From: Nitrospinota bacterium
GTDB lineage: Bacteria; Nitrospinota; Nitrospinia; Nitrospinales; JACRGP01
Reading direction: 5' to 3'
NCBI GenBank assembly: GCA_016207065.1
Contig: JACQQK010000149.1
Coordinates: 1-63,114, forward strand
DNA length: 63,114 nt
Below the pieces are notes generated by a model. The model searched no databases, was not told the origin of the DNA, and saw only the letters and a program-made list of their open reading frames with translations. Shown here in pieces: positions 4,206 through 55,159 of this stretch (positions are counted from its first letter, which is position 1; the number at the start of each line of letters is the position of its first letter). The position numbers were made by a program, and so were the translations under genes.

Positions 4206-4544
4206 TTAAAGAAACGTTAAAATGGTTTTATGCAGGAAAAACCCGACCGCCAGCAAACCCAGCCCGGCCAGATAGCATTGCCAGAAGGACAGGCCCAGTT
4301 TCTCCGCCAACAAAAAGGGCACGAAGAACAGCAAGGATACGGGGATGCCGACGAAGACGCTCTTGGCGAACGCGATGGAGGCTTGGGGATTTTCGTGCTC
4401 GGCGTAGGAAAAGGCCAGGGCGACGAGGGTGGCGACGGGCAAGGCAATAATGAAACCCGCGAGGTCGGGCCGCTTACCCGAAAGCCACGAGCAAAAACTG
4501 ATGATGCCGGCGGCGACGGCCGTTTTTAGAATAAACAGGGTCAT
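4206..4544 (-). CDS. Small polytopic membrane protein (112 aa, about 4 TM segments), unknown function
   Basis: The internal ATG at 4544 of ORF 4206..4796 starts the hydrophobic part (MTLFILKTAVAAGIISF...). The upstream 84 codons overlap the csoR-like gene antisense and look like a shadow frame. Confidence 0.6.
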   Translation of the reverse strand: MTLFILKTAVAAGIISFCSWLSGKRPDLAGFIIALPVATLVALAFSYAEHENPQASIAFAKSVFVGIPVSLLFFVPFLLAEKLGLSFWQCYLAGLGLLAVGFFLHKTILTFL

Positions 4545-4580
4545 GGCGTTTTCGAGCGTCCCCCAAATATGTGCGTTCGC

Positions 4581-4616
4581 TTGACATATCCTATCCCCAG
4601 GGATAGGATATGTCAA
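4581..4616. promoter_or_regulatory. 36-bp palindromic operator overlapping divergent promoters (17-bp perfect arms)
   Basis: TTGACATATCCTATCCC-CA-GGGATAGGATATGTCAA. Each arm starts with TTGACA, and TAGGAT lies 17 nt downstream on either strand. It sits in the 75-bp gap between genes starting at 4544(-) and 4620(+). Confidence 0.65.
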
Positions 4617-4619
4617 GCC

Positions 4620-4889
4620 ATGGACAAGCACGAAACGCATCCGGAAATCGTCAAGCGCCTCAAGCGAGCCTTGGGCCACCTGGACAAGGTGGTCCACATG
4701 ATCGAGTCGGGGAAGGCCTGTCTGCAAGTAGCCCAGCAACTGCAAGCCGTCGTCAACGCCATCGCCAAGGCCAAGCAAATCTACGTCCAGGACCATATCG
4801 AAAACTGCATCGAAACGAGAGAAGGTCTGGCGTCCAAGGATCTCGCCCGGCAGGTCAGGGAGTTGAAGGAAATCGCAAAGTATTTGTGA
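4620..4889 (+). CDS. CsoR/RcnR/FrmR-family metal- or stress-sensing transcriptional repressor (DUF156)
   Basis: MDKHETHPEIVKRLKRALGHLDKVVHMIESGKACLQVAQQLQAV..QDHIENC shows the family helix pattern with a Cys...His-x3-Cys fingerprint. I chose ATG 4620 (89 aa) over the track start 4569, which would be encoded by the palindrome. Confidence 0.85.
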   Translation: MDKHETHPEIVKRLKRALGHLDKVVHMIESGKACLQVAQQLQAVVNAIAKAKQIYVQDHIENCIETREGLASKDLARQVRELKEIAKYL

Positions 4890-5663: not shown

Positions 5664-6059
5664 CTAGCAGGTTGCTGAAAAACTATTTTTTAGTCTTTTG
5701 CCGTCATTCCCGTGAAAACGGAATCCAGTGTTTTCAAGGGCTTTCTGGATGCCCGCTTTCGCGGGCATGACGATTTTTGGGCGCAAAAGGGACTTTTTCA
5801 GCGCCCGGCTAGAGATTCTCTCGGTTCGTTGGCCCGCGACCGCGCGATCATATTGTATTGACAATTGAAGTCCATCGAGAATGGCGCGCAATGTGCCCGG
5901 CCTGATGGGTTTGCTTCCATGAACGGGAATGACGGCTCTTCGGCTGGGGTCGTCTCGATGGACCATGATCGCATGTCCTCCGGTCAGTCTCTTTACGTAA
6001 AACCCCCATCCTTCAAGAATGCGGATGAGGCGCGGACCGGAGATTTGCGGAAGTTTCAT
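5664..6059 (-). CDS. hicA: HicA-family mRNA interferase toxin with an abnormally long C-terminal extension reading through the MITE
   Basis: MKLPQISGPRLIRILEGWGFYVKRLTGGHAIMVHRDDPSRRAVIPVHGSKPIRPGTLRAILDGLQLS is the HicA pattern. The ATG overlaps the hicB stop (TGATG). The ORF continues about 65 codons beyond the usual HicA end. Confidence 0.7.
   Translation of the reverse strand: MKLPQISGPRLIRILEGWGFYVKRLTGGHAIMVHRDDPSRRAVIPVHGSKPIRPGTLRAILDGLQLSIQYDRAVAGQRTERISSRALKKSLLRPKIVMPAKAGIQKALENTGFRFHGNDGKRLKNSFSATC
5671..5802. mobile_element. MITE-like repeat, family C, copy 1 (about 130 bp, GCTGAAAAA terminal inverted repeats, two 8-bp GC hairpins)
   Basis: Shares a 32-nt identical core tttctggatgcccgctttcgcgggcatgacga and overall colinearity with 20908-21035. 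The ends are gctgaaaaac... and ...ctttttcagc. Confidence 0.7.
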
Positions 6060-6286
6060 CAAACGACGATCTCGATGTCCCGGATGAGGACTTCCGCGCC
6101 GGTTTCGGGGACCGGCAGGCCGTCGTCTTTCAGACTCCAAAGATAAAGCTTGATCGCTTCCTGGATGTTGGCGTTAGCTTCGTCGAAGTTGTCCCCTTGG
6201 GAAACGCAACCCGGAAGGGCGGGGACATGGACGGAGTACCCGCCGTCGGATTCCTGCTCGAAGACAACTTTAAATCGATAGCTCAT
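6059..6286 (-). CDS. hicB: HicB-family antitoxin (UPF0150)
   Basis: YRFKVVFEQESDGGYSVHVPALPGCVSQGDNFDEANANIQEAIKLYL is the typical HicB N-domain; 75 aa; coupled to hicA. Confidence 0.8.
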   Translation of the reverse strand: MSYRFKVVFEQESDGGYSVHVPALPGCVSQGDNFDEANANIQEAIKLYLWSLKDDGLPVPETGAEVLIRDIEIVV

Positions 6287-6488
6287 GTCGCGGTATTCCT
6301 TTCAGCAAGATAGCCGTTAACGCATAACCCAAACCCAGTCTAGACCGGATACCGATCGAGTGGAAGGGGGAAAATTTGGAGTGCAAAGCCTCCCGGCTTT
6401 GCATGCAACGCGAGGACGCGTTGCGCTCCAAAAACTTCCGCTTTGTCCAGCGGTTTTCCCCCTTGTTTATGAATGGGCAAAAAAGCGC

Positions 6489-8636
6489 CTACAGTTGCCG
6501 CAGGGTTTTCCACAGTCCTTTTTTCTCGCTGGGCGAAGGGGAAAGGCCGGCGAAGCGGAGTCGCTCGTACAGGCCGGTTATCTCCTGGACCAGTTGCCGT
6601 TTCTCGGGGGGCAGGGGCTCCAGATGATCAAGGAACTCCCGGTGCGTCCAGTTCGGGCGCTTGCGCAGGCCGGACTTCTCCAGTTTCCGCAACATCGCGG
6701 CGTACAGGGCGACGGCAAAGGGGGGTCGAGAGGCGGCGGACCCCGGCCGCCATGGAACCCTGGCCCACAACGCGGCCAACGCGACGGTCAAGGCGACAGC
6801 GAGGGCATAGCCCCGGTTATCGCGGAGAAATTGCGCGGCGTTCTTCCAGGCGTCCGGCCTCAACGATTTGACTTTGTGGAGCAGGTCGCGTCCGCTCCGG
6901 CCGAACCAGTTGTACATGCGCACCTGGTCGTGCACGGAGTAGCGGATGACGTAGCGTTGCCAGTTCAGGCGGAGCAGGTCGAGGGCACGGGTTACGGGGT
7001 TGTTCAACTGGGTCGCCCGGGCCAGCGGGTCGGGCGGGGTGGGGTCGTAAACGGCCCAGCCTTTTCCCGGTATAAAGGCCTCGACCCAGGAGTGGGCGTG
7101 GCTCTGGCGGACGATCAAGTAGTTCCCCAGTTCGTTCCATTCCCCTCCGGCAAAACCGTTGACAAGACGGGCGGGGACCCCCGCGGAGCGCAAAAGGACG
7201 ACCATGGCCGAGGCGAAATATTCGCAATGCCCCTTCTTGCGGTCGAACAGGAACTCGTCCAGGCCGGGCTTCATGGTCTCCTTGACCATGTCGAGGGAAT
7301 ACTGGAAATTCCCGGCGAAATGATTCAGTATCTTTTCGGCCTTGGCCGATGGGGTTTGCGCGGACCGCGTCAGGTCGCCGGCCAATTGAGCGATGCGCGG
7401 GCCCAGGCCCTCCGGCAACTGGAGGAACCGGCCCATGAACTCCGGCTCGGCGGGCCCCGGAGAAATCAGGTCGATGTTGACGTCGGGATGCCCGATTTCC
7501 GACCGCATGATGAACTTTTTGGGGCCGTACGGGCTTCCCAACAGTCGCAGGACGAAGCTTTGGTCCATTTCCAGCCCGCGGAAATTGCCGTCGATGAACG
7601 CCGGGACGCCGTGCGTGAACACGATGTCCGAATCGAAGGACTCGACGAAAACCTCCTGCTCCATCATTTCCGACGGAGGATCGACCACGAAGAGGTCGAT
7701 CCCCACGCCCGCCCTGTTGCGGGCCTGCCATTCCGTCGGCGCGGTCGCGGTCCATGACTGGCCGTCGTAATGGTCCAGGGCCACCCCCCGCCACAGGATC
7801 CTGGACCTGGGCCGGTAGCTTTTCCCGTCGCGCCGGTACTCCACGCGCATGACCACTTCCGGGTTGAGCTTGATCCTGCCGACGTCGCCCAGGGTGACGG
7901 TCTCGGAAAACCCGCTGATGGGCGAGGACCGGGCGTTCAACGCCAAAACGCCCAGGCTCAACCGCGGGAAGCTGACGAAGATGACGGACGTGAGGACGAG
8001 GCTGAGGGCCACGAGCCCGGCGGACAACCCGAACAGCGAGGCCCCGGCCGTTTCGTTCTCCCCGATGCGTTTGAACCGCGACGGCGGACAATGGCTTCCC
8101 CCGCGTTCCACCATCATGTTGTAAAAGATCAGGCTCCAGCAGAGGACCAGGTAGAACGACAGGAAGATGAAGGCGAACGCCAGGTCGCGGATGTAGATGG
8201 CCCCCAGCAGAAGGCAGATGACGGCGAGCAGATAGCTGTAGAGATAGTCGTTGAGTTCGGTCTTGAAAATGAACCGGGAGAAAAAAAGGACGGTCAAAAA
8301 CCCCACCACCAGTTCGACCAGGGGCAGGTTGAAACCGAAATACAAAACCGGCAGGATGAAAAACCCCCACTTCGACAGCGAGAACCCGGCGAGGGGCTCG
8401 ATGGGGATCTTCCGTTTGGTTTCGAGGACGAAACACGCGCCCAGCAGGACCGCCAGAGCGATATTGACCGTCTCCGGCATGATCTCGCTCATCGTCAGGC
8501 TCGACAGACCGATGGCCCCCAACGCATAGTTGAACAGGACAAAGCAGGAGCGGAGCTTGATCCCCCGCGCGGGATGGGAAAACGTTCTGGCGGCGTTAAA
8601 GAATCCAGTCGGCATTGGAAACTCGTTTCTGGGCAT
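6489..8636 (-). CDS. Transglutaminase-like membrane protein (TgpA-like: N-terminal multi-TM region, transglutaminase core, C-terminal TM/DUF4129-like tail)
   Basis: About 6 N-terminal TM helices. The core reads KKGHCEYFASAMVVLLRSAGVPARLVNGF...HAHSWVEAF..GWAVYDPT (Cys-His-Asp). The alternative start is MPTGFF at 8615. Confidence 0.85.
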   Translation of the reverse strand: MPRNEFPMPTGFFNAARTFSHPARGIKLRSCFVLFNYALGAIGLSSLTMSEIMPETVNIALAVLLGACFVLETKRKIPIEPLAGFSLSKWGFFILPVLYFGFNLPLVELVVGFLTVLFFSRFIFKTELNDYLYSYLLAVICLLLGAIYIRDLAFAFIFLSFYLVLCWSLIFYNMMVERGGSHCPPSRFKRIGENETAGASLFGLSAGLVALSLVLTSVIFVSFPRLSLGVLALNARSSPISGFSETVTLGDVGRIKLNPEVVMRVEYRRDGKSYRPRSRILWRGVALDHYDGQSWTATAPTEWQARNRAGVGIDLFVVDPPSEMMEQEVFVESFDSDIVFTHGVPAFIDGNFRGLEMDQSFVLRLLGSPYGPKKFIMRSEIGHPDVNIDLISPGPAEPEFMGRFLQLPEGLGPRIAQLAGDLTRSAQTPSAKAEKILNHFAGNFQYSLDMVKETMKPGLDEFLFDRKKGHCEYFASAMVVLLRSAGVPARLVNGFAGGEWNELGNYLIVRQSHAHSWVEAFIPGKGWAVYDPTPPDPLARATQLNNPVTRALDLLRLNWQRYVIRYSVHDQVRMYNWFGRSGRDLLHKVKSLRPDAWKNAAQFLRDNRGYALAVALTVALAALWARVPWRPGSAASRPPFAVALYAAMLRKLEKSGLRKRPNWTHREFLDHLEPLPPEKRQLVQEITGLYERLRFAGLSPSPSEKKGLWKTLRQL

Positions 8637-8682: not shown

Positions 8683-8800
8683 GCTCCCCCTTGCAAAATC
8701 CCCCCTCGCCCTCCTTTGTCAAAGGGGGGATGGGGGGATTTGAAACTCCTGGTCGCGGTCATGGCACGAATCCCCCTGGCCCCCTTTACAAGGGGGGATG
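8683..8800. mobile_element. MITE-like repeat, family A (short form)
   Basis: Left end cctcctttgtcaaaggggggatggggggatttgaaa, right end gaatccccctggccccctttacaagggggg. The ends are inverted repeats of each other and each contains a CCCCC..GGGGG hairpin. Confidence 0.7.
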
Positions 8801-9131: not shown

Positions 9132-9959
9132 ATGGACGTCAATACCATCCGATTCTCCGTTTTTCTAGGGGTATTCCTGATCATGTTGCTCCTGGAGCGG
9201 TTGGTCCCGCGTCATCCCCTGGTGGATTCGAAACCCCGCCGGCTGGCGATCAACCTGGCGATCACTGGGCTGGACATCCTCGCGGTGCGTCTGGCGTTCG
9301 GCGCCGCCGCCGTCGGCGCGGCCCAGTTCGCCCAGGAAAAAGGCTGGGGCCTGCTCAATTACTGGGACCTCCCCGCCTGGTTTGAATTCCTCCTCGCGCT
9401 CGTCTTTCTCGACCTGATGATTTATATCCAGCATGTCGTGGTCCACATGGTCCCCTTCTTCTGGCGGTTTCACGTGGTGCACCATTCCGACCTGGACCTC
9501 GACGTGTCCTCGGGACTGCGTTTCCACCCCGTCGAAATCCTGGGCTCCATGCTCTACAAGGCGGGGTTGGTCCTGCTCCTGGGCCCGGCGCCGCTCGCGG
9601 CGATGACGTTCGAGGCGGTCCTCAACGGCATGTCGCAATTCACCCATTCCAACATCCGCCTGCCCGCGCCCCTGGACAACGCCTTGCGCTGGGCGTTCGT
9701 GACGCCGGACATGCACCGGATCCACCACTCGGTCGAGGCGCGCGAAACCAATTCCAATTTCGGCTTCAACCTTTCGATCTGGGACCGTCTGCTGGGCACC
9801 TACATCCACGACGCCGCGAAACCGCAACCGGAGATCGTCATCGGCGTCGAATTTTTCCGGAAGCCCGGGGACGTTTCGTTCCTCAATCTGATGACCATGC
9901 CGTTCCGCGACAACATCACGCAAGCGTACACCAACTCCCCGAGGTCGCGGAGGGGTTAA
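9132..9959 (+). CDS. Fatty acid hydroxylase / sterol desaturase family membrane protein
   Basis: Histidine boxes HVVVH, HVVHH and HRIHH in a polytopic membrane context. I preferred ATG 9132 over the TTG 9072 given in the track. Confidence 0.8.
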   Translation: MDVNTIRFSVFLGVFLIMLLLERLVPRHPLVDSKPRRLAINLAITGLDILAVRLAFGAAAVGAAQFAQEKGWGLLNYWDLPAWFEFLLALVFLDLMIYIQHVVVHMVPFFWRFHVVHHSDLDLDVSSGLRFHPVEILGSMLYKAGLVLLLGPAPLAAMTFEAVLNGMSQFTHSNIRLPAPLDNALRWAFVTPDMHRIHHSVEARETNSNFGFNLSIWDRLLGTYIHDAAKPQPEIVIGVEFFRKPGDVSFLNLMTMPFRDNITQAYTNSPRSRRG

Positions 9960-9987
9960 CGCCAGAACGCCTTACCATGGAGACCGC

Positions 9988-11421
9988 ATGACTACGCCGC
10001 CCCGATTGACCAAGATCATCGCCACGCTGGGCCCCGCCACCGCCAGCAGAAAAGGCATAAAGGAACTGGCCGCCGCCGGGGTCAACGTGTTCCGGATGAA
10101 CCTTTCCCACGGACGCCACGACCTGCTCCGCCAATGGATCTCGTGGGTGCGGCAGGCGGAGAAGGAGTCGAGGACCCACCTGGGAGTCCTTCTGGACCTG
10201 CAGGGGCCCAAAATCCGCGTCGGAAAGTTCGAGAACGGTTTCATCGAGTTGCACCGCGGCGACCATGTGCGGTTCACGACCGAAAAAGTGACCGGCCGGG
10301 ACGGCCTGATTCACGTCCAGTACCGCAATTTCCACAAAGAGGTGCGGGTGGGAAGCCGGGTCTATCTGGACGACGGCAATATTTGCGTCCATGTGACCGA
10401 GGTCAACGGCAGGGAGGTGGCCGCCAAGGTCGAGGCGGGAGGAAGCCTTTCCAACTTCAAGGGGCTCAACATGCCCGACGCGGCGATCTCCGCCAGCCCG
10501 CTGACCGCCAAGGACAAGCGCGACCTGGCGTTCGGCCTGGCGGAGGGCGTCGATTTCGTGGCCCTGTCCTTCGCCAGCTCGGCCCGCGACATCCATCAGC
10601 TCCGGCGGTTGATCCGCAACGCGGGCGGCGACGCCGAGATCGTCGCCAAGATCGAGCGCAAGAAGGCCGTCGAGAACCTGGAGGAGATCGTGGAGGCTTC
10701 CGACGCCGTCATGGTCGCCCGGGGCGACCTGGGGATCGAGATCCACCTGGCCGAGGTCCCCATCGTCCAGCAGAACATCATGCGTCTGTGCGCCGTGCAT
10801 TGCAAGCCCGTGATCGTGGCGACGCAGATGCTGGAATCGATGATCTCCAACCGGCGGCCGACCCGCGCCGAGGTCTCGGACATCGCCCAGGCGGTGATGA
10901 ACTGCGCCGACGCCATCATGCTGTCGGCGGAGACCGCCGTCGGCAAATATCCCGACGCCGCCGTGTCGGTCATGTCCGAGACCGCGCGCAAGATGGAGGC
11001 GTATCAGCGCCAGCACCAGCGGATCCTGCCGTGGAGCTGGTACTTCAAGGAAGACCCGCCGATCAACCTCGGCATCACCTACTCGGCGAACCGCATGGTG
11101 GAACTGTTGAACGCCAAGGCCCTGATCATCTTCACCCTCACGGGGGGGACGGCGCGGCAGGTTTCCGGCCCGCGCCCCATGGTCCCGATCTTCTCCTTCA
11201 CCTCCGACCCGCGGCGGGCGCGGAAGCTGACCCTGCTCCGCGGCGCCGTGCCGTTCCTGTGGAAGCAGAAACGCGACTTCTCGGAGGACGTGGCGACGGT
11301 CTTCCGCATCCTGAAACGCCGCAACCTTCTCGAAAAAGGCGACCGGGCGATCATTACCTCCGGCATCCCGATCGGCATCCCGCAATGGACCAACGTGATC
11401 CGCGTGGAAAAAACGCCGTGA
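9988..11421 (+). CDS. pyk: Pyruvate kinase
   Basis: TKIIATLGPAT...GVNVFRMNLSHG...LLDLQGPKIRVG...VARGDLGIEI...VATQMLESM...RAEVSDIAQAV..GADAIMLSAETA; 477 aa. Confidence 0.95.
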   Translation: MTTPPRLTKIIATLGPATASRKGIKELAAAGVNVFRMNLSHGRHDLLRQWISWVRQAEKESRTHLGVLLDLQGPKIRVGKFENGFIELHRGDHVRFTTEKVTGRDGLIHVQYRNFHKEVRVGSRVYLDDGNICVHVTEVNGREVAAKVEAGGSLSNFKGLNMPDAAISASPLTAKDKRDLAFGLAEGVDFVALSFASSARDIHQLRRLIRNAGGDAEIVAKIERKKAVENLEEIVEASDAVMVARGDLGIEIHLAEVPIVQQNIMRLCAVHCKPVIVATQMLESMISNRRPTRAEVSDIAQAVMNCADAIMLSAETAVGKYPDAAVSVMSETARKMEAYQRQHQRILPWSWYFKEDPPINLGITYSANRMVELLNAKALIIFTLTGGTARQVSGPRPMVPIFSFTSDPRRARKLTLLRGAVPFLWKQKRDFSEDVATVFRILKRRNLLEKGDRAIITSGIPIGIPQWTNVIRVEKTP

Positions 11422-11731: not shown

Positions 11732-11910
11732 TTCCCCCTTGCACAAAGGGGGTCAGGGGGATTTGAAATCCCCATTCGCGCCAGCGTGCCGCTGGACCCA
11801 ACAGGCTTGAATCGGACGGCGAGCGGCGATCATCGAGGGCAATTTGGACCGCGCCAATCCGCCTTTATGTCGAGTAGCGCGAATCCCCCCAGCCCCCTTT
11901 ACCAGGGGGA
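11732..11910. mobile_element. MITE-like repeat, family A (long form, about 180 bp)
   Basis: Colinear with 51569-51741 and highly similar by eye (not computed). It has the same terminal hairpin modules plus a shared core ...cgcgccagcg..cgctgg.cccaacaggcttga.tcgga.ggcg...cgtcgagggcaat... Confidence 0.75.
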
Positions 11911-26786: not shown

Positions 26787-26820
26787 GCTCCCCCTTGCAA
26801 AGGGGGCCGGGGGGATTCGC
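26787..26820. repeat. Family-A solo terminal module
   Basis: gctcccccttgcaaagggggccggggggattcgc. Confidence 0.5.
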
Positions 26821-29920: not shown

Positions 29921-30005
29921 TCCCCCTTGCAAAGGGGGTAGGGGGATTTGAAATACCCGTTCGCAGTAAGGACGCGAATCCCCCAGGCCCCCTTTACAAG
30001 GGGGA
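29921..30005. mobile_element. MITE-like repeat, family A (minimal form)
   Basis: tcccccttgcaaagggggtagggggatttgaaa ...gaatcccccaggccccctttacaaggggga. Both end modules are present with only about 25 nt between them. Confidence 0.7.
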
Positions 30006-49519: not shown

Positions 49520-49681
49520 GCTATCGGTCCGCGGTTGAAGAAAAAACCGGTTGTGTGCGATCATAATACGGTTTTCTCAATTTACTAACGAGTCCATAAT
49601 AGTACAAACAGCGTTCGCATTGTTTTTCCAGCTTCGTTACCGGACCCGGGGGCGAATGCCATGAACCGTCGCGATGTCCAA

Positions 49682-49705
49682 GTCCCCCTTTCGCAAAGGG
49701 GGGAC
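49682..49705. repeat. Family-A solo hairpin module
   Basis: gtccccctttcgcaaaggggggac. Confidence 0.45.
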
Positions 49706-49760
49706 CCATGGACCCGCTCATGAGCCACGCGTGTCCGCTCTATTGGACTCCCCTATACTT

Positions 49761-50855
49761 ATGATTTCCTCGCGATCCACAACGTCTATCGTCCGCTCCG
49801 CTCTCGCGTCCGCATGCCTGATTCTCGCGCTCGTCATGCCGGGGATTTCGCGCGCTCAATCCGCCGGGGAATGGTACCAACAGGCGTTTGAGTTTTCCCT
49901 GAAGGGAGAGACGGACAAAGCCATCGAGGCCTACCGCCGCGCCATCGAGCTTCAACCGGACTGGGCCGAGGCCCACCACGGACTGGCAACGCTCTATTTC
50001 GAGGCCAAATCGGGAGTCCAGGCCATCGCGCATCTCCGGAAGGCGGAGGCGCTTTACGGACGGCGCGCCGACGACAAGGCAAAAAAGAATCTCGCCATCG
50101 TCCGCAGGAACCTCGACAAGGCCTATCGTCTTCTGAATCTCGGGCCGGAGGATTTTGAAGCGCTGACCCCATTCCCCCCCGAGATCCAATGGCAAGCTAC
50201 GGGGGCGGGGTTCTTGATCGGCCCGGCGGGTTACCTCCTGACCTCCCTCCACGCGGTGAAGGATGCGGACCGGATCCGGGCCAGATTTCCGCGGGGCAAG
50301 GTTGTCTCCGCCGAGATCGTCCGCTCGTTCGTGGTTTACGACGCCGCCCTCTTGAAACTGAAAGACGCTTCCGCCGTCCCGCCGCGCGTTTTATCGTTCG
50401 GGGATTCCTCCCGTCTGCGCCCGGGCGACCCTGTGTACGCGGTCGACCCCGCCCGATCCGGAACGCCTCCCTACCGGGGGTCGCTCCAAACCGTCAACGC
50501 CGTCGAGGACAACGACTCCATTTTCGCCATCGATCTCCCCTGGGAACGCGACCCGGGCGGCGCGCCGGTTTTCAACGAATCGGGAGAAGTCGTCGGCATG
50601 GCGTTTTCCAAGGCCTTCATGGAAAAAAACTTCTCCGCCCTGGAAGCGGAGAAGGCGGGGACCGATTTCGCCCTCAAGGCTTCCTATCTAGCGGGGGTTT
50701 TGCCGGAAATTTCCGGTCCGAACCGGAAAACGCGGAAACCCGGGGAAGAACCGCGGACGGCGGACCCGGCAAAAAGTACCGGAACGTTTTTAGAGGACGC
50801 CCGGCAAAATCTGGTTTCCATCGAAACCCTGCCTAAAGAAGGCCCCGGGAAATGA
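49761..50855 (+). CDS. Secreted TPR plus trypsin-like (S1C/DegP-type) domain protein, apparently lacking the catalytic serine
   Basis: Signal peptide, TPR (AIEAYRRAIELQPDWAEAHHGLATLY) and GAGFLIGPAGYLLTSLHAV (His), YDAALLKL (Asp). The GNSGGP position reads DPGGAP. ATG 49761 was chosen because the track start 49674 lies in a repeat. Confidence 0.7.
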   Translation: MISSRSTTSIVRSALASACLILALVMPGISRAQSAGEWYQQAFEFSLKGETDKAIEAYRRAIELQPDWAEAHHGLATLYFEAKSGVQAIAHLRKAEALYGRRADDKAKKNLAIVRRNLDKAYRLLNLGPEDFEALTPFPPEIQWQATGAGFLIGPAGYLLTSLHAVKDADRIRARFPRGKVVSAEIVRSFVVYDAALLKLKDASAVPPRVLSFGDSSRLRPGDPVYAVDPARSGTPPYRGSLQTVNAVEDNDSIFAIDLPWERDPGGAPVFNESGEVVGMAFSKAFMEKNFSALEAEKAGTDFALKASYLAGVLPEISGPNRKTRKPGEEPRTADPAKSTGTFLEDARQNLVSIETLPKEGPGK

Positions 50856-51541
50856 ACTCCCACGCCGGCAAAACGGAGCTGAGTATCTCTCGCCGGACAA
50901 GGCCGACGCGCTTATTCAGGACCATCTCGTTCGCTTTATTTCTGGCCTTGACCGCCGGAGAAGCGGCGGGAGCCGAAATTGTTTTACAACTTTCGGGAAA
51001 CGCGGAATTCCCCGGCTGGATGGCCTTGCGCGCGGAAGCGGAGGCCATCGACCGCATCTGTTTCCTGGGAAAAAACGCCAGGGGAAATATTGACGGAAAC
51101 TTTCTGGACGCCCTCTCTCGGTCCGGAATCCCCGAGGGCGAATACGCGATTTCCGGGCCTCTGGAGGACGAGCGCTGGCCGTCCAGGACTTTCCAGAAGA
51201 ACGGCGTCCTGCGCCTGAAGGCGGCCAGCGGAGAGACCATTGCCCATTTGGACCGCATGAGGGTTTTGGGGCTGGCGATCCATGGCCGGGACTTCTACCC
51301 CTTGCTGGAAAACCGGGTCAAGGACCCGAAAATGATCGCGTTTTACAACGACGACCTGTTCGAGAGATTGCGGACGCATTGGGGACCGCTCCGCATTTCC
51401 AACTGGGACATGGGCCGCCTGTTCGACTTCTGGGCCAGGTTCTCCGGTCCCTCGCAATGGAAAGTACGGGTGCAAAGCGGTAGCGCCGAGGAAACCGTCA
51501 AAAAGTGCAAACCCGCGACAGCCCAACGTCCCGCGGATTGA
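50852..51541 (+). CDS. Secreted hypothetical protein (229 aa), translationally coupled to the pseudo-protease gene
   Basis: ATGA overlap with the upstream stop. The N-terminal hydrophobic segment is LFRTISFALFLALTAGEAAGA. No family recognised. Confidence 0.55.
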   Translation: MNSHAGKTELSISRRTRPTRLFRTISFALFLALTAGEAAGAEIVLQLSGNAEFPGWMALRAEAEAIDRICFLGKNARGNIDGNFLDALSRSGIPEGEYAISGPLEDERWPSRTFQKNGVLRLKAASGETIAHLDRMRVLGLAIHGRDFYPLLENRVKDPKMIAFYNDDLFERLRTHWGPLRISNWDMGRLFDFWARFSGPSQWKVRVQSGSAEETVKKCKPATAQRPAD

Positions 51542-51568: not shown

Positions 51569-51741
51569 CCCCCCTTGCAAAGGGGGATAGGGGGATTTGA
51601 AAGCTCCTGCTCGCGCCAGCGAGTCGCTGGCCCCAACAGGCTTGACTCGGATGGCGGGCGATGATCGTCGAGGGCAATCCGGGCAGAGCCATGCCGCCCG
51701 GCGAGTAGCAGGAATCCCCCCGGCCCCCTTTACAAGGGGGA
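51569..51741. mobile_element. MITE-like repeat, family A (long form)
   Basis: Colinear with 11732-11910. The ends are ccccccttgcaaagggggatagggggatttgaaa and gaatccccccggccccctttacaaggggga. Confidence 0.75.
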
Positions 51742-51804: not shown

Positions 51805-52779
51805 TCAAGCATACAACCGGACGACCTGTTCGGCGTAGCCGTTGTAGGACCGGGTCGGGCGCATTTCCTCCTGGCCGAGCGGCCTCTCGAATCTCTGGTC
51901 CCACCGGGCGTAAGGGACATTGGGGTCCACATTCGCCGGGAAATCGTATTCCAGCGGGGAAACGCTCTGCCAGAACGTATCCGGCGGTTCGCGGGTGAAC
52001 TCGATGGCCGCGATGGACTTCAGGCTCTTGAAGCCATACTTCCACGGGACCGCCAAGCGGATGGGGGCTCCGTTCTGCGGGGTCAGGGGGTGGCCGTACA
52101 TGCCGGTGGCCATGAAGGCGAGTTCGTGCATGGCCTCTTCCATGCTCAACCCCTCGGTATAAGGCCAGGGTTCCCAGAACCGTTCCTTTTGGCCGGGGGC
52201 GAGGTTGGGATCGAGGAACGTGGCGAATTTGACGTATCGCGCGGAGGACAGGGGCTCCAGAATGCGGACCAACTCTTTCAACGGAAACCCGGTCCACGGT
52301 ATGACGGCCGACCAGGTCTCGACGCAACGCAAACGGTAAATCCGGTCTTCGAGGGGCATCTTCCGCAACAAGTCTCCGACGTCCAACGTCCGCGGTTTTT
52401 GCGTCAGCCCGGAAACCTTGACGGTCCACCCATCCACGCGCAGACCTTTGGCGAGACGCCATATTTCGGCTTTATCGTCCCCGAACTCATAGAAATTGTT
52501 GTAACGCGTAATCAACCGGTCGGGGGTCACGGCCTCGCCGGAAGGCGGAAGTAGCTTGGCGGAGCCGCGCTTCTTTTTTGCCGGGGTTTTGGCCCCGCGC
52601 GGGGTTTCCGCCCAGGTTCGCGGCAGACCGAACATCCCGGAAGCCAAACACAGCCCCGCGACGGTCATTCCCGTCTCGCCCAGTTTCCGAAGAAACTTCC
52701 GCCGGTTCAGGTAAACCTCTTCCGGAACGACTTCGCTCTCGCGAATGTCCCAAGACCGAGGAATCTTTATACCGAACAT
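51805..52779 (-). CDS. msrP: Molybdopterin-dependent periplasmic oxidoreductase, MsrP/YedY-like (protein-methionine-sulfoxide reductase catalytic subunit)
   Basis: Tat motif NRRKFLRKLG, ITRYNNFYEFG, Mo-ligand Cys block RLRCVETWSAVIPWTGFPL, GAPIRLAVPWKYGFKSLKSI. I preferred ATG 52779 over TTG 52797. Confidence 0.85.
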   Translation of the reverse strand: MFGIKIPRSWDIRESEVVPEEVYLNRRKFLRKLGETGMTVAGLCLASGMFGLPRTWAETPRGAKTPAKKKRGSAKLLPPSGEAVTPDRLITRYNNFYEFGDDKAEIWRLAKGLRVDGWTVKVSGLTQKPRTLDVGDLLRKMPLEDRIYRLRCVETWSAVIPWTGFPLKELVRILEPLSSARYVKFATFLDPNLAPGQKERFWEPWPYTEGLSMEEAMHELAFMATGMYGHPLTPQNGAPIRLAVPWKYGFKSLKSIAAIEFTREPPDTFWQSVSPLEYDFPANVDPNVPYARWDQRFERPLGQEEMRPTRSYNGYAEQVVRLYA

Positions 52780-52819
52780 CGGTCCGTCCCTTTCCAAGCA
52801 AAGGGCGTCCGTACCCGCC

Positions 52820-53563
52820 CTACTTACCCGCTCTCTCTTTCGCGGAGACCGCGCAACGGAAACCCAGGGAGTTCAACCGCGCCGCGGGATCCAGATGGAA
52901 GCGCATACCCGCGTTAATATAGTATTCCGCATTATACCAGCTCCCGCCGCGCAGGACCCTTTCGCTTCCGGACGCCGGTCCCAAGGGATTCACGGACGGG
53001 CCCTTGGGATAAGGAGCGAACCAATCGCCGACCCATTCCCAGACGTTGCCGCTCATATTATAAATCCCGAAACCGTTGGGCTCATGTGCGTTCACGGGGA
53101 CGGCTCCCGCCGCGAACGGTTCTCCAAAACGGGCTTTCGTCTTGTCCGGTTGACGGCCAAAAGAGTAGTCGTTGCCTTCGGGTCCGCGGGCGGCCCTTTC
53201 CCATTCCGCCTCGGTGGGCAGGCGCGCGCCCCGGCTTTTGCAGTAGGCGTCCGCCTCCATCCAGTTCACCAGGGTCACGGGACACTCGTCGCAGGCCGAC
53301 CGGTCGCTACGCGCGCGCGAGGGTTGAAAAGCCTCGTATTCCCTAGCGCTCGTTTCGTAACGGTCGATATAGTAAGCGTCCAGGCGGACTTTGCGGACGG
53401 GCAATTCGGCCTGGGTCCCTTGCCTTGCGCCCATGAGAAATTCTCCCGCGGGCACCAGGGCCATAGGGTCCTTGTTCAACCCAGCCGCGTCTCCGGCCTG
53501 CGCGCCGGCGGCTGAAACGACCATCATGAGGAGCGGGAGAATGCGGAGCGTTCCGTAATCCAT
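52820..53563 (-). CDS. Secreted FGE-sulfatase (SUMF1/formylglycine-generating enzyme) family protein
   Basis: Signal peptide, then MALVPAGEFLMG, VRLDAYYIDRYETS, YCKSRGARLPTEAEWERAARG, GNVWEWVGDWF, LRGGSW and GFRC. Confidence 0.85.
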   Translation of the reverse strand: MDYGTLRILPLLMMVVSAAGAQAGDAAGLNKDPMALVPAGEFLMGARQGTQAELPVRKVRLDAYYIDRYETSAREYEAFQPSRARSDRSACDECPVTLVNWMEADAYCKSRGARLPTEAEWERAARGPEGNDYSFGRQPDKTKARFGEPFAAGAVPVNAHEPNGFGIYNMSGNVWEWVGDWFAPYPKGPSVNPLGPASGSERVLRGGSWYNAEYYINAGMRFHLDPAARLNSLGFRCAVSAKERAGK

Positions 53564-53593
53564 GCGATTGATCCATCGATTTGCATTACCGGG

Positions 53594-55159
53594 TCATTCC
53601 ACGACCAATGTCCGCCAGGACGCGACCGACTTGTCGGCGTTCTTGTTCTTGCCGGAGCCGTCCCAGACGGCAAAAGCCAAAAGGAACCGGTTGTCCGCCT
53701 TAAAATCGACATCGCTTTGCCATCCGGTTTTCAGATCGCGGAGGAAAACCGCCGTCCAGCGTCCGTTTTCCCATTTACCCTGGCCGCGGACATTCTGGTT
53801 TTCCAGGGACTGAAAGGACAGGGTCCCGAACCCGCTGGAGTTGAGCTCCTCGACCGGCGACTCGCTGAACGGGTTCAGGCGAGGACTGGCGGGACTCTCC
53901 TCGGCGCTTGCCGCGCCCTCGCGGGGGCCGGCGATTTCCTGCCCCGCGTCGGCCTTCCAGTGCCAGATGTTGACGGGCTTGCCGCGCTCCCCCATCCCGA
54001 AAAAGGGCGCGTCGAAAGCGTTCCCCCGTTCCAGGGCAAACTGGATGGCCGCGGAGTCCAGAAAACCGCTCGTTCCGTATTTAGCCCTATCGGGCGATGG
54101 GTCCTCCCATTGCAGGCGGAACGCGATTCGATTCTCGTCATGGACCGATTGGACCGTCAGGGCCGCGGGAGCGCCGCGGTTCCCGGCCCGGAGGGGAGAC
54201 AACGGTATGTTGGCGGAGGGGATTTTGTCCCAGACGGGGTTGTCCGGACGCTCGTCAAAAAGCTCCCTGGTCCGATAAGAGGTCAACGGCGCGGCGGAAT
54301 CGGATGGGGACTCCTCGCCCTGGAAACGCGATTGCAGATAATGCGCCAGCCGCCACCGCTCCGCGTCACTCAGATAATCGTAAGCGCTCATGGAGGAGCC
54401 GTCGATCCCCGCGGCCAGGGTCTGGTAAATCTCGTCGCCGGCGGAACCTCCCTTGTAGAGGGCGGGCCGGCGGATATCGTAAACGTATGCCGTCTGCCCC
54501 CAACTGTCCTCCGATTGTCCTTCAAGGAGCCCCGTCTTTTCCCCTTCCTCGCCATGGCACTGGCTACACCGCAGTTGCCGGTACAGGCTCCTCCCCTTCT
54601 CGACCGACAAATCGTCGAACGGGGGTTCCAGGCCGATCTCGATCTTCAAGCCGGGGGTCTCCCGGCCAAACCGGCCGGAAAACGTTTTGACGTATTCGAC
54701 GACGGAGCGGACCTGCTCGCCGGACAACGCCTGTCCCCAGGCGGGCATGGGCGAGCCGGGAACGCCGCGCTTGACGGTCCGGGCGATGTCCTCCTCCGTC
54801 GGCAGGGCGCCGGGCTGGGTGGAATGGAATTTGAAAATACCGAGGCCCAGGTCCCGCGGCCGGGGATACAGATAACGGGACGCCGGGCCGTCGCCCTTTC
54901 CCCCCGGACCATGACAATGGACGCAAAAACGCTGAAAAAGCGCCTTCCCCTCGTCAAGGACTTTTTGCCGTTCCCGCGCGCTCGACGCCCGTTGCTCCTC
55001 CGGCTGGGCGGCGTCGATCATTTTTTCGATCTTGCGGGACTCGGCGGCGGAGCCGGCGCGGACCCAGACGGAGGACGCGCAGAAAACCGCCAAAACCCAA
55101 AACGGCGCCGGGCCAAAAAAACGGCGTCCCGGCGACCGCGACCGCTTTTTTTCAACCAT
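53594..55159 (-). CDS. Periplasmic dihaem cytochrome c fused to an EB_dh/DOMON-type haem-b domain (ethylbenzene-dehydrogenase gamma / NxrC-like)
   Basis: Two CxxCH motifs (CVHCHG, CSQCHG). The C-terminal part reads LTVQSVHDENRIAFRLQWEDPSPD..DSAAIQFA..GKPVNIWHWKA..GKWENGRWTAVFLRDL..LAFAVWDGS..K. I preferred ATG 55159 over TTG 55177. Confidence 0.78.
   Translation of the reverse strand: MVEKKRSRSPGRRFFGPAPFWVLAVFCASSVWVRAGSAAESRKIEKMIDAAQPEEQRASSARERQKVLDEGKALFQRFCVHCHGPGGKGDGPASRYLYPRPRDLGLGIFKFHSTQPGALPTEEDIARTVKRGVPGSPMPAWGQALSGEQVRSVVEYVKTFSGRFGRETPGLKIEIGLEPPFDDLSVEKGRSLYRQLRCSQCHGEEGEKTGLLEGQSEDSWGQTAYVYDIRRPALYKGGSAGDEIYQTLAAGIDGSSMSAYDYLSDAERWRLAHYLQSRFQGEESPSDSAAPLTSYRTRELFDERPDNPVWDKIPSANIPLSPLRAGNRGAPAALTVQSVHDENRIAFRLQWEDPSPDRAKYGTSGFLDSAAIQFALERGNAFDAPFFGMGERGKPVNIWHWKADAGQEIAGPREGAASAEESPASPRLNPFSESPVEELNSSGFGTLSFQSLENQNVRGQGKWENGRWTAVFLRDLKTGWQSDVDFKADNRFLLAFAVWDGSGKNKNADKSVASWRTLVVE

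Follow-up and report, generated by a model that had tools for sequence, protein, structure and literature searches.

Analysis of a 63,114-nucleotide contig from a Nitrospinota bacterium (JACQQK010000149.1 of assembly GCA_016207065.1; the whole stretch is referred to below as the window) revealed an operon-like set of three minus-strand genes at positions 51,805 to 55,159. They are predicted to encode a soluble tri-haem cytochrome, a secreted protein with the fold of the formylglycine-generating enzyme (FGE), and a molybdoenzyme of the MsrP/YedY family exported by twin-arginine translocation (Tat), with no gene for the membrane partner MsrQ beside them. To our knowledge, no system other than MsrPQ repairs oxidised methionines in the envelope of Gram-negative bacteria, and its MsrQ component is considered the specific electron donor of MsrP. 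The reading we favour, to which we assign a probability of about one half, is that the locus encodes a periplasmic module for sulfoxide repair that works independently of MsrQ and receives its electrons from a soluble cytochrome. Such a module would be a Nitrospinota-specific form of a periplasmic methionine-sulfoxide (or related S- or N-oxide) reductase system, in which the tri-haem cytochrome would dock on MsrP and pass on electrons from a periplasmic or membrane electron pool, standing in for MsrQ, a membrane protein linked to quinol and flavin. The FGE-fold protein would be an accessory subunit or an adaptor for substrates, either without catalytic activity or dependent on a thiol or a metal. 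A literature search found no report of MsrP being paired with a cytochrome or an FGE-fold protein of this kind, and the arrangement is a newly described variant of the MsrP system, with a cytochrome and an FGE partner, built on the known MsrP.

The three genes follow one another closely. The cytochrome gene (53,594–55,159, 521 aa counted from an ATG that is preceded by AAAGGGG) is separated by 30 nt from the FGE-fold gene (52,820–53,563, 247 aa), which is followed after 40 nt by msrP (51,805–52,779). For the latter, the ATG at 52,779 gives a protein of 324 aa and the TTG at 52,797 one of 330 aa; the ATG is favoured by the N-termini of the orthologs, which begin with MFGIKI, and by a Shine-Dalgarno-like GGGA/GGA site ahead of it. 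Pfam assigned two Cytochrome_CBB3/Cytochrom_C domains and an EB_dh domain (PF09459, 111 bits against a cutoff of 33.3) to the first gene product, FGE-sulfatase (PF03781, 163 bits) to the second, and Oxidored_molyb (PF00174) as the sole domain to the third. An earlier sequence-only reading of this DNA had described three closely spaced genes for a dihaem-c/EB_dh protein, a secreted FGE-like protein and a Tat-exported MsrP-like enzyme; the open reading frame coordinates and both gaps agree with it, and the gene identities are borne out by the Pfam and NCBIfam scores. The spacing by itself suggests that the three genes are co-transcribed. A consensus scan of the locus found no promoter-like site, and terminator-like sites were not in excess (7 against 6.0 in shuffled sequence). 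In a search of sequencing runs, the locus sequence was present in groundwater DNA metagenome runs only.

Judged from its sequence, the product of the last gene is a Tat-exported Mo enzyme of the MsrP/YedY family, for which sulfoxide reductase activity is predicted. It scored 390.5 bits against the NCBIfam MsrP equivalog NF003767 (cutoff 207), matched the E. coli YedY/MsrP structure 1xdq with an E-value of 6e-81, and shares 45.7% identity with E. coli MsrP. The models for sulfite dehydrogenases remained far below their cutoffs (SorA 33.5 vs 600, SorT 28.5 vs 570, SoxC 23.9 vs 420 bits), and the Mo-co dimerisation domain is absent, with PF00174 alone detected by Pfam. A SorA-type sulfite dehydrogenase is ruled out by these family scores, and the earlier assignment of the enzyme to the MsrP type holds. 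The features shared with E. coli MsrPQ (YedYZ) comprise the catalytic family, the Tat signal, the Mo-ligand cysteine and the NNFYEF and RxRCVE active-site motifs. On the minus strand, the twin-arginine motif RRKFL (residues 26–30) lies at 52,690–52,704, its RR invariant and RRxF kept in 19 orthologs; the NNFYEF motif, which holds the counterparts of E. coli Asn45 and Tyr47, lies at 52,483–52,500; and the RLRCVE motif, with the Mo-ligand Cys (E. coli Cys102) and Glu104, lies at 52,318–52,335. Both active-site motifs align with 1xdq and are invariant in the 19 orthologs. In Nitrospina gracilis, SorAB is a separate enzyme of 435 aa. Barnum and Coates (2022) linked MsrP generally to chlorine stress, not to an operon of cytochrome, FGE and MsrP genes.

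Where the locus departs from E. coli MsrPQ is in the lack of an adjacent MsrQ, a membrane flavocytochrome of the Ferric_reduct family, and in the presence of the tri-haem cytochrome and the FGE-fold protein. None of the six polytopic membrane open reading frames of the window matches Ferric_reduct (PF01794), and neither this family nor MsrQ was found among the Pfam-annotated neighbours of seven MsrP loci. A tblastn search with E. coli MsrQ gave no match at E ≤ 10 in 1.03 Mb of sequence, made up of the window and 91 loci, from which the E. coli MsrP query recovered 27 MsrP genes. Thus, msrQ is not adjacent to msrP at this locus or near the 27 related MsrP genes, and the absence noted from the window alone extends to the relatives searched.

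The first gene product is predicted to be a Sec-exported, soluble tri-haem cytochrome, consisting of an N-terminal dihaem cytochrome c module and, fused to it, a haem-b domain of the EB_dh/NxrC type. A profile built from 23 orthologs was searched against the PDB, where residues 64–281 matched the dihaem cytochrome c Kustc0457 of Kuenenia (6h5l_B, E 2e-57) and the C-terminal part matched both NxrC (7b04_C, E 7e-40) and EbdC (2ivf_C), the gamma subunit of ethylbenzene dehydrogenase that served as the reference for aligning the haem-b ligands. All residues expected to hold the three haems are invariant in the orthologs. The first haem-c motif, CVHCH (residues 79–83, with C79, C82 and H83), lies at 54,911–54,925 and its likely axial ligand Met138, within PGSPM, at 54,746–54,760; the second, CSQCH (residues 198–202, with C198, C201 and H202), lies at 54,554–54,568 and the likely axial Met257, within DGSSM, at 54,389–54,403, all on the minus strand. 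For haem b, the predicted ligands are Met389 in a GMGE motif (53,987–53,998, minus strand), which aligns with Met108 of 2ivf_C, and Lys510 in an NADK motif (53,630–53,641, minus strand), which aligns with Lys201. The Met/Lys pair that the sequence-only reading associated with EB_dh domains is therefore conserved. The signal peptides of the orthologs end with AxA immediately before an invariant ESRKIEKMIE, and the mature cytochrome is therefore predicted to be soluble. Its score against TIGR03477, 123.9 bits, is below the cutoff of 169.85.

Comparison with characterised cytochromes places both halves of the protein in known families. With the gamma subunits of type II DMSO reductases (EbdC, NxrC) it shares the EB_dh fold and the Met/Lys ligation of haem b; it differs from them in its fusion to a dihaem c module and in its neighbouring enzyme, which has the sulfite-oxidase fold, and no genes for an alpha subunit with a Mo-bis(molybdopterin guanine dinucleotide) cofactor or an iron-sulfur beta subunit are co-encoded in this region of the window or at the orthologous loci. 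Kustc0457, the homolog of the N-terminal 220 residues, binds stably to the reductive hydroxylamine oxidoreductase (HAO) Kustc0458, whose haem wire it lengthens (PDB 6h5l; PMC8042395). By analogy with this dedicated haem wire on a periplasmic-type reductase, the present cytochrome may dock on MsrP in the same manner, although it carries a fused haem-b domain and is paired with a Mo enzyme instead of an octahaem HAO. Homologs of the full cytochrome come nearly all from Nitrospinota, and a groundwater Nitrospinota metagenome-assembled genome encodes one with 96% protein identity (contig JACRGP010000085).

Conservation of the neighbourhood was assessed by tblastn searches with five window proteins (those of the three genes and of two convergent genes downstream) against 86 fetched loci. 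The order cytochrome–FGE–MsrP was found in at least 20 Nitrospinota loci, and the two convergent genes were also present in 16/16 linked loci with sufficient flank, while the genes beyond this five-gene block vary between loci. Among orthologs, the gap between cytochrome and FGE genes ranges from −20 to +57 nt (median 6) and that between FGE and MsrP genes from −4 to +53 nt (median 17.5), an operon-like spacing that includes overlaps. In a maximum-likelihood tree, the MsrP-linked cytochromes form one clade of 22 rows, in which the sole apparently unlinked row is cut off by a contig end. The conservation of the three-gene neighbourhood is thus confirmed within one monophyletic clade of cytochromes.

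A sister clade comprises 13 cytochromes, all from genomes that do not overlap with those of the linked clade. Their genes lie between a gene for a conserved protein with two transmembrane segments and the genes for FA_hydroxylase and pyruvate kinase. The upstream two-transmembrane proteins (L016:5118–5798, L021:5316–5822 and L035:5332–5856) are 53–58% identical and belong to no Pfam family; possibly they act as membrane anchors or partners of the sister-clade cytochromes. The window itself holds the syntenic FA_hydroxylase and pyruvate kinase genes at 9,132–11,418, with no cytochrome gene upstream and with a MITE-like end (miniature inverted-repeat transposable element) at 8,769–8,796. The non-overlapping genomes and this pair without a cytochrome suggest that each genome has one ortholog, which has moved between two sites.

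Taken together, the MsrP type of the enzyme, the intact haem ligands, the missing adjacent msrQ and the conserved gene order make it reasonable to infer that electrons enter through the soluble cytochrome. To this extent the idea of a soluble cytochrome input put forward by the sequence-only reading is supported, but the link to the cytochrome is not universal, and the constant partner of MsrP is the FGE-fold protein. Several points weigh against a cytochrome-fed module. The searches for msrQ covered the surroundings of MsrP genes, and an msrQ may lie farther off in the genome. In addition, c-haems with His/Met ligation and EB_dh b-haems are usually of high potential, at about +200 to +300 mV in characterised relatives, whereas sulfoxide couples lie near +160 mV and catalysis by E. 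coli YedY is reported to need reduction at low potential. Reductive flow may therefore be unfavourable unless the haems are unusually low in potential. Furthermore, in the 13 genomes of the sister clade the orthologous cytochrome does not adjoin MsrP, which makes the link dispensable at the level of gene order, and proteins of the same architecture have been tentatively tied to nitrite oxidoreductase (NXR), a hypothetical assignment taken up below (PMC3578206).

The mismatch in potential leaves a choice between unusually low haems, a substrate that is a stronger oxidant, or oxidative electron flow. The last of these would make the locus an oxidative module, in which a YedY-like enzyme oxidises a periplasmic substrate and sends the electrons by way of haem b and both c-haems to a high-potential respiratory chain. 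Enzymes of the sulfite-oxidase (SUOX) fold with soluble cytochrome partners are known, and such a module would parallel SorAB and SorT-SorU, whose genes pair a SUOX-fold Mo enzyme with a soluble c-type cytochrome, as well as the EB_dh subunits of dehydrogenases. EB_dh subunits and His/Met c-haems usually accept electrons from dehydrogenases or serve reductases of very high potential, and any periplasmic electron donor would benefit a nitrite oxidiser. However, the Mo subunit belongs to the reductase (YedY) clade: it passes the MsrP equivalog at 390 bits and keeps the YedY residues Asn45, Tyr47, Cys102 and Glu104, it scores far too low as SorA, SorT or SoxC and lacks a dimerisation domain, and YedY-type enzymes are generally known as reductases only. 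The cytochrome architecture is also unrelated to that of the SorAB and SorT-SorU partners. We regard the oxidative module as the least probable of the explanations considered here.

A different role for the cytochrome is suggested by work on N. gracilis, where the same architecture of c-haems and a DMSO-reductase-type haem-b domain was described as 'alternative NxrC' (alt_NxrC2-4; Lucker et al. 2013, PMC3578206). There, alt_NxrC2 and alt_NxrC4 were predicted to be periplasmic, while alt_NxrC3 is a split gene of unassigned location (PMC3578206). The sequence-only reading had considered an EB_dh domain beside this kind of Mo enzyme to be out of the ordinary; this stands for the partner, which belongs to the sulfite-oxidase fold, but not for the architecture, which is not unusual in the phylum, where it occurs as the multi-paralog alt_NxrC family. 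The cytochrome could accordingly be a general periplasmic carrier or an NXR-associated alternative NxrC that merely lies beside FGE-MsrP in one lineage, with an unlinked MsrQ, another cytochrome, or an FGE-fold/Lcl_C partner system as the actual donor of MsrP. The assignment of this cytochrome type to NXR by Lucker et al. (2013) speaks for such a role, as do the several paralogs per genome in unrelated gene contexts and the 13 genomes in which the ortholog is unlinked from MsrP while FGE and MsrP are still paired. On the other hand, deeply separated Nitrospinota lineages have kept the genes adjacent, with next to no gap or with overlaps, in changing surroundings, and no MsrQ was found near any MsrP searched. 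Unlike the hypothetical link to NXR in N. gracilis, a protein of the same phylum and architecture here belongs to an orthologous clade tied to FGE-MsrP, and neither nxrA nor nxrB adjoins members of the MsrP-linked cytochrome clade at the loci inspected. We therefore consider a mere carrier or NXR-associated cytochrome unlikely, albeit a serious competitor of the cytochrome-fed module.

The second gene encodes a secreted minimal FGE-fold (C-type-lectin-like) protein in a 220-residue form. Its AlphaFold2 model reached a pLDDT of 91.7, and Foldseek superposed the model on human FGE with a TM-score of 0.76. The counterpart of the FGE active-site loop, RGGSWYNAEYYINAGMRF (52,898–52,951, minus strand), stands opposite GGSYMCHRSYCYRYRC of human FGE in the alignment and lacks both copper-binding cysteines: in the comparison with wild-type human FGE (1y1e), Cys336 faces Asn and Cys341 faces a gap or Tyr. 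The pair is absent in all orthologs aligned, and a true FGE, that is a copper oxidase, is ruled out by the missing Cys336/Cys341. What the protein carries instead is a CDECP motif (Cys91-x-x-Cys94-Pro, residues 91–95; 53,279–53,293, minus strand) just ahead of a PVT strand, and S-x-C-x-x-C-P is invariant among the MsrP-linked orthologs. The CxxC is subfamily-specific, being kept in FGE-fold relatives of at least 44% identity and missing in those of 43% or less. The structural cysteine pair of canonical FGE corresponds to Cys108 and Cys237, which makes the CxxC a site of its own, be it a disulfide, a redox site or a metal site. In lacking the copper-binding cysteines within an FGE/C-type-lectin-like fold, the protein resembles pFGE/SUMF2, PvdO and PorK/GldK, from which it differs in its minimal size, in the subfamily-specific CxxC and in being always encoded upstream of MsrP.

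The pairing of FGE-fold protein and MsrP extends beyond the loci with a cytochrome. In at least four loci, from three sister-clade genomes and one further contig, the order is FGE–MsrP–Lcl_C without a cytochrome, and the MsrP encoded there is 55–56% identical to that of the window. Three of these variant operons, at L087:6216–8541, L088:6172–8544 and L089:6212–8472, lie downstream of genes for MacB-type ABC transporters, and in L088 and L089 the start of the Lcl_C gene overlaps the stop of msrP. Wherever an MsrP locus is linked to an FGE-fold gene, that gene immediately precedes msrP. As the cytochrome is absent from the variant operons while FGE and MsrP persist, FGE-MsrP is the invariant core of the system. 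The MsrP tree is in line with these arrangements: all FGE-linked MsrPs group together (SH-aLRT 91), apart from E. coli MsrP and from a second, FGE-less paralog (MsrP2), and their sub-clades mirror those of the cytochrome tree.

MsrP2, which is 47% identical, was seen in some Nitrospinota (L042:1148–2107 and L040) with neither an FGE nor an MsrQ neighbour. Its surroundings comprise CutA-like, DedA/VTT and thioredoxin-NHL genes, with an Lcl_C-cytochrome pair about 4 kb off; a small open reading frame upstream of the L042 copy was considered as a cytochrome and rejected, as it appeared by eye to be a CutA-type cytoplasmic protein.

With FGE-MsrP as the only invariant association, the two proteins could also form a complete two-subunit enzyme in which the CxxC supplies or relays reducing equivalents or binds a metal; the remaining genes, for the cytochrome and the two convergent proteins, would then be co-regulated stress genes whose products are not physically coupled to it. 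The confinement of the CxxC to this FGE-fold subfamily would fit such an enzyme. Yet without a DsbD-like partner, of which no gene was seen nearby, a periplasmic CxxC has no obvious reductant; the MsrP2 paralogs lack an FGE; and the two most divergent CxxC-bearing relatives examined (P0327 and P0333), on short contigs of about 2.2 kb, adjoin PMT_2 and LRR genes and not MsrP. A self-sufficient two-subunit enzyme thus appears improbable to us.

The Lcl_C proteins offer an indirect connection back to the cytochromes. In the main clade of cytochrome paralogs (37–42% identical), an Lcl_C (PF07603) gene lies almost always just upstream, in more than 45 loci (L006 and L040–L086; for example L042:4976–5485 followed by 5695–7446), and this Lcl_C-cytochrome pair is a second conserved cytochrome module of Nitrospinota. 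At the two loci inspected, L006 and L042, the pair is followed by unannotated open reading frames of 391 and 451 aa. Proteins of the lectin fold are thus recurrent companions of the cytochrome family. The occurrence of Lcl_C both beside cytochrome paralogs and after MsrP in the variant operons links MsrP indirectly, through Lcl_C, to a cytochrome.

Returning to the cytochrome-fed module, a more far-reaching version of it can be formulated, which we put forward tentatively and with more doubt than confidence. Here, a soluble three-haem cytochrome would have replaced MsrQ, MsrP would work in an obligate complex with the CxxC-bearing FGE-fold subunit, and periplasmic sulfoxide repair would be wired directly to the periplasmic cytochrome pool; one alternative NxrC would be the redox partner of MsrP, and lectin-fold proteins (FGE-like, Lcl_C) would be generic adaptors of EB_dh cytochromes. 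An MsrP operon that spans the phylum with no msrQ nearby, and that brings its own soluble cytochrome and a constant FGE-fold partner, would represent a second way to power MsrP. One of the alternative NxrC proteins, a group annotated since 2013 as subunits of nitrite oxidoreductase in marine nitrite oxidisers, would thereby gain a testable function, and the many FGE-fold proteins with altered catalytic residues would gain a further role. Among marine nitrite oxidisers Nitrospinota are the main group, and their periplasm-facing NXR can turn chlorate into chlorite; envelope repair is therefore of physiological relevance for these bacteria.

The two genes that converge on msrP from the plus strand both appear to encode pseudoenzymes. 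The nearer one (50,852–51,541) encodes a secreted protein of 229 aa with the YkuD (L,D-transpeptidase) fold, whose family comprises 39 cluster representatives among 1.84 billion and is nearly confined to the MsrP-linked block. Its fold assignment is based on distant profile matches that pass Pfam YkuD, on an hhalign comparison with bona fide YkuD (probability 99.1%, E 1.6e-18) and on Foldseek, where the L,D-transpeptidase-fold proteins Tlde1a and DpaA were the top matches. The nucleophilic cysteine is replaced (WGPLRISNWDM): YkuD THGCLRLSN aligns with HWGPLRISN, and where the (S/T)xGC motif has its catalytic Cys, 17/17 orthologs have Pro or Ala. The second gene (49,674–50,855), whose stop overlaps the start of the YkuD-like gene, encodes a secreted protein of tetratricopeptide repeats (TPR) and a trypsin fold (HtrA-like, without PDZ; Pfam Trypsin_2 and TPR), in which the catalytic Ser is Gly (DPGGAP) and whose orthologs lose His, Asp and Ser in differing combinations. 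One representative, P0367, joins TPR repeats to a YkuD-like domain in a single protein. The cysteine-less YkuD-fold protein and the TPR/trypsin-fold protein with its decaying triad suggest an envelope quality-control block, and the five genes may together serve the quality control of envelope proteins and the cell wall under oxidative or chlorine stress. The sequence-only reading had mentioned a convergent gene downstream of msrP; the gene is present, but it is not an incidental neighbour, since two convergent genes are conserved in the block.

The MITE reported in the same reading is real as well. A MITE-like repeat occupies 51,570–51,740 in the convergent intergenic region, with 28-nt inverted termini at 51,570–51,597 and 51,713–51,740 that are 86% complementary. 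Related repeat ends occur elsewhere in the window at 8,769–8,796, 11,894–11,908, 26,790–26,817 and 29,923–30,003, where about zero would be expected by chance. The termini of this MITE/REP-like (repetitive extragenic palindromic) family, CCCCCTT(G/T)NNAAGGGGG, are scattered through the window. The gap between msrP and its convergent neighbour measures 263 nt here (263–267 nt when L007 is included) vs 13–101 nt in the other orthologous loci. Elsewhere in the window, an open reading frame of 196 aa (4,206–4,796, minus strand) encodes a protein with about four hydrophobic segments and no Pfam match at E ≤ 0.01.

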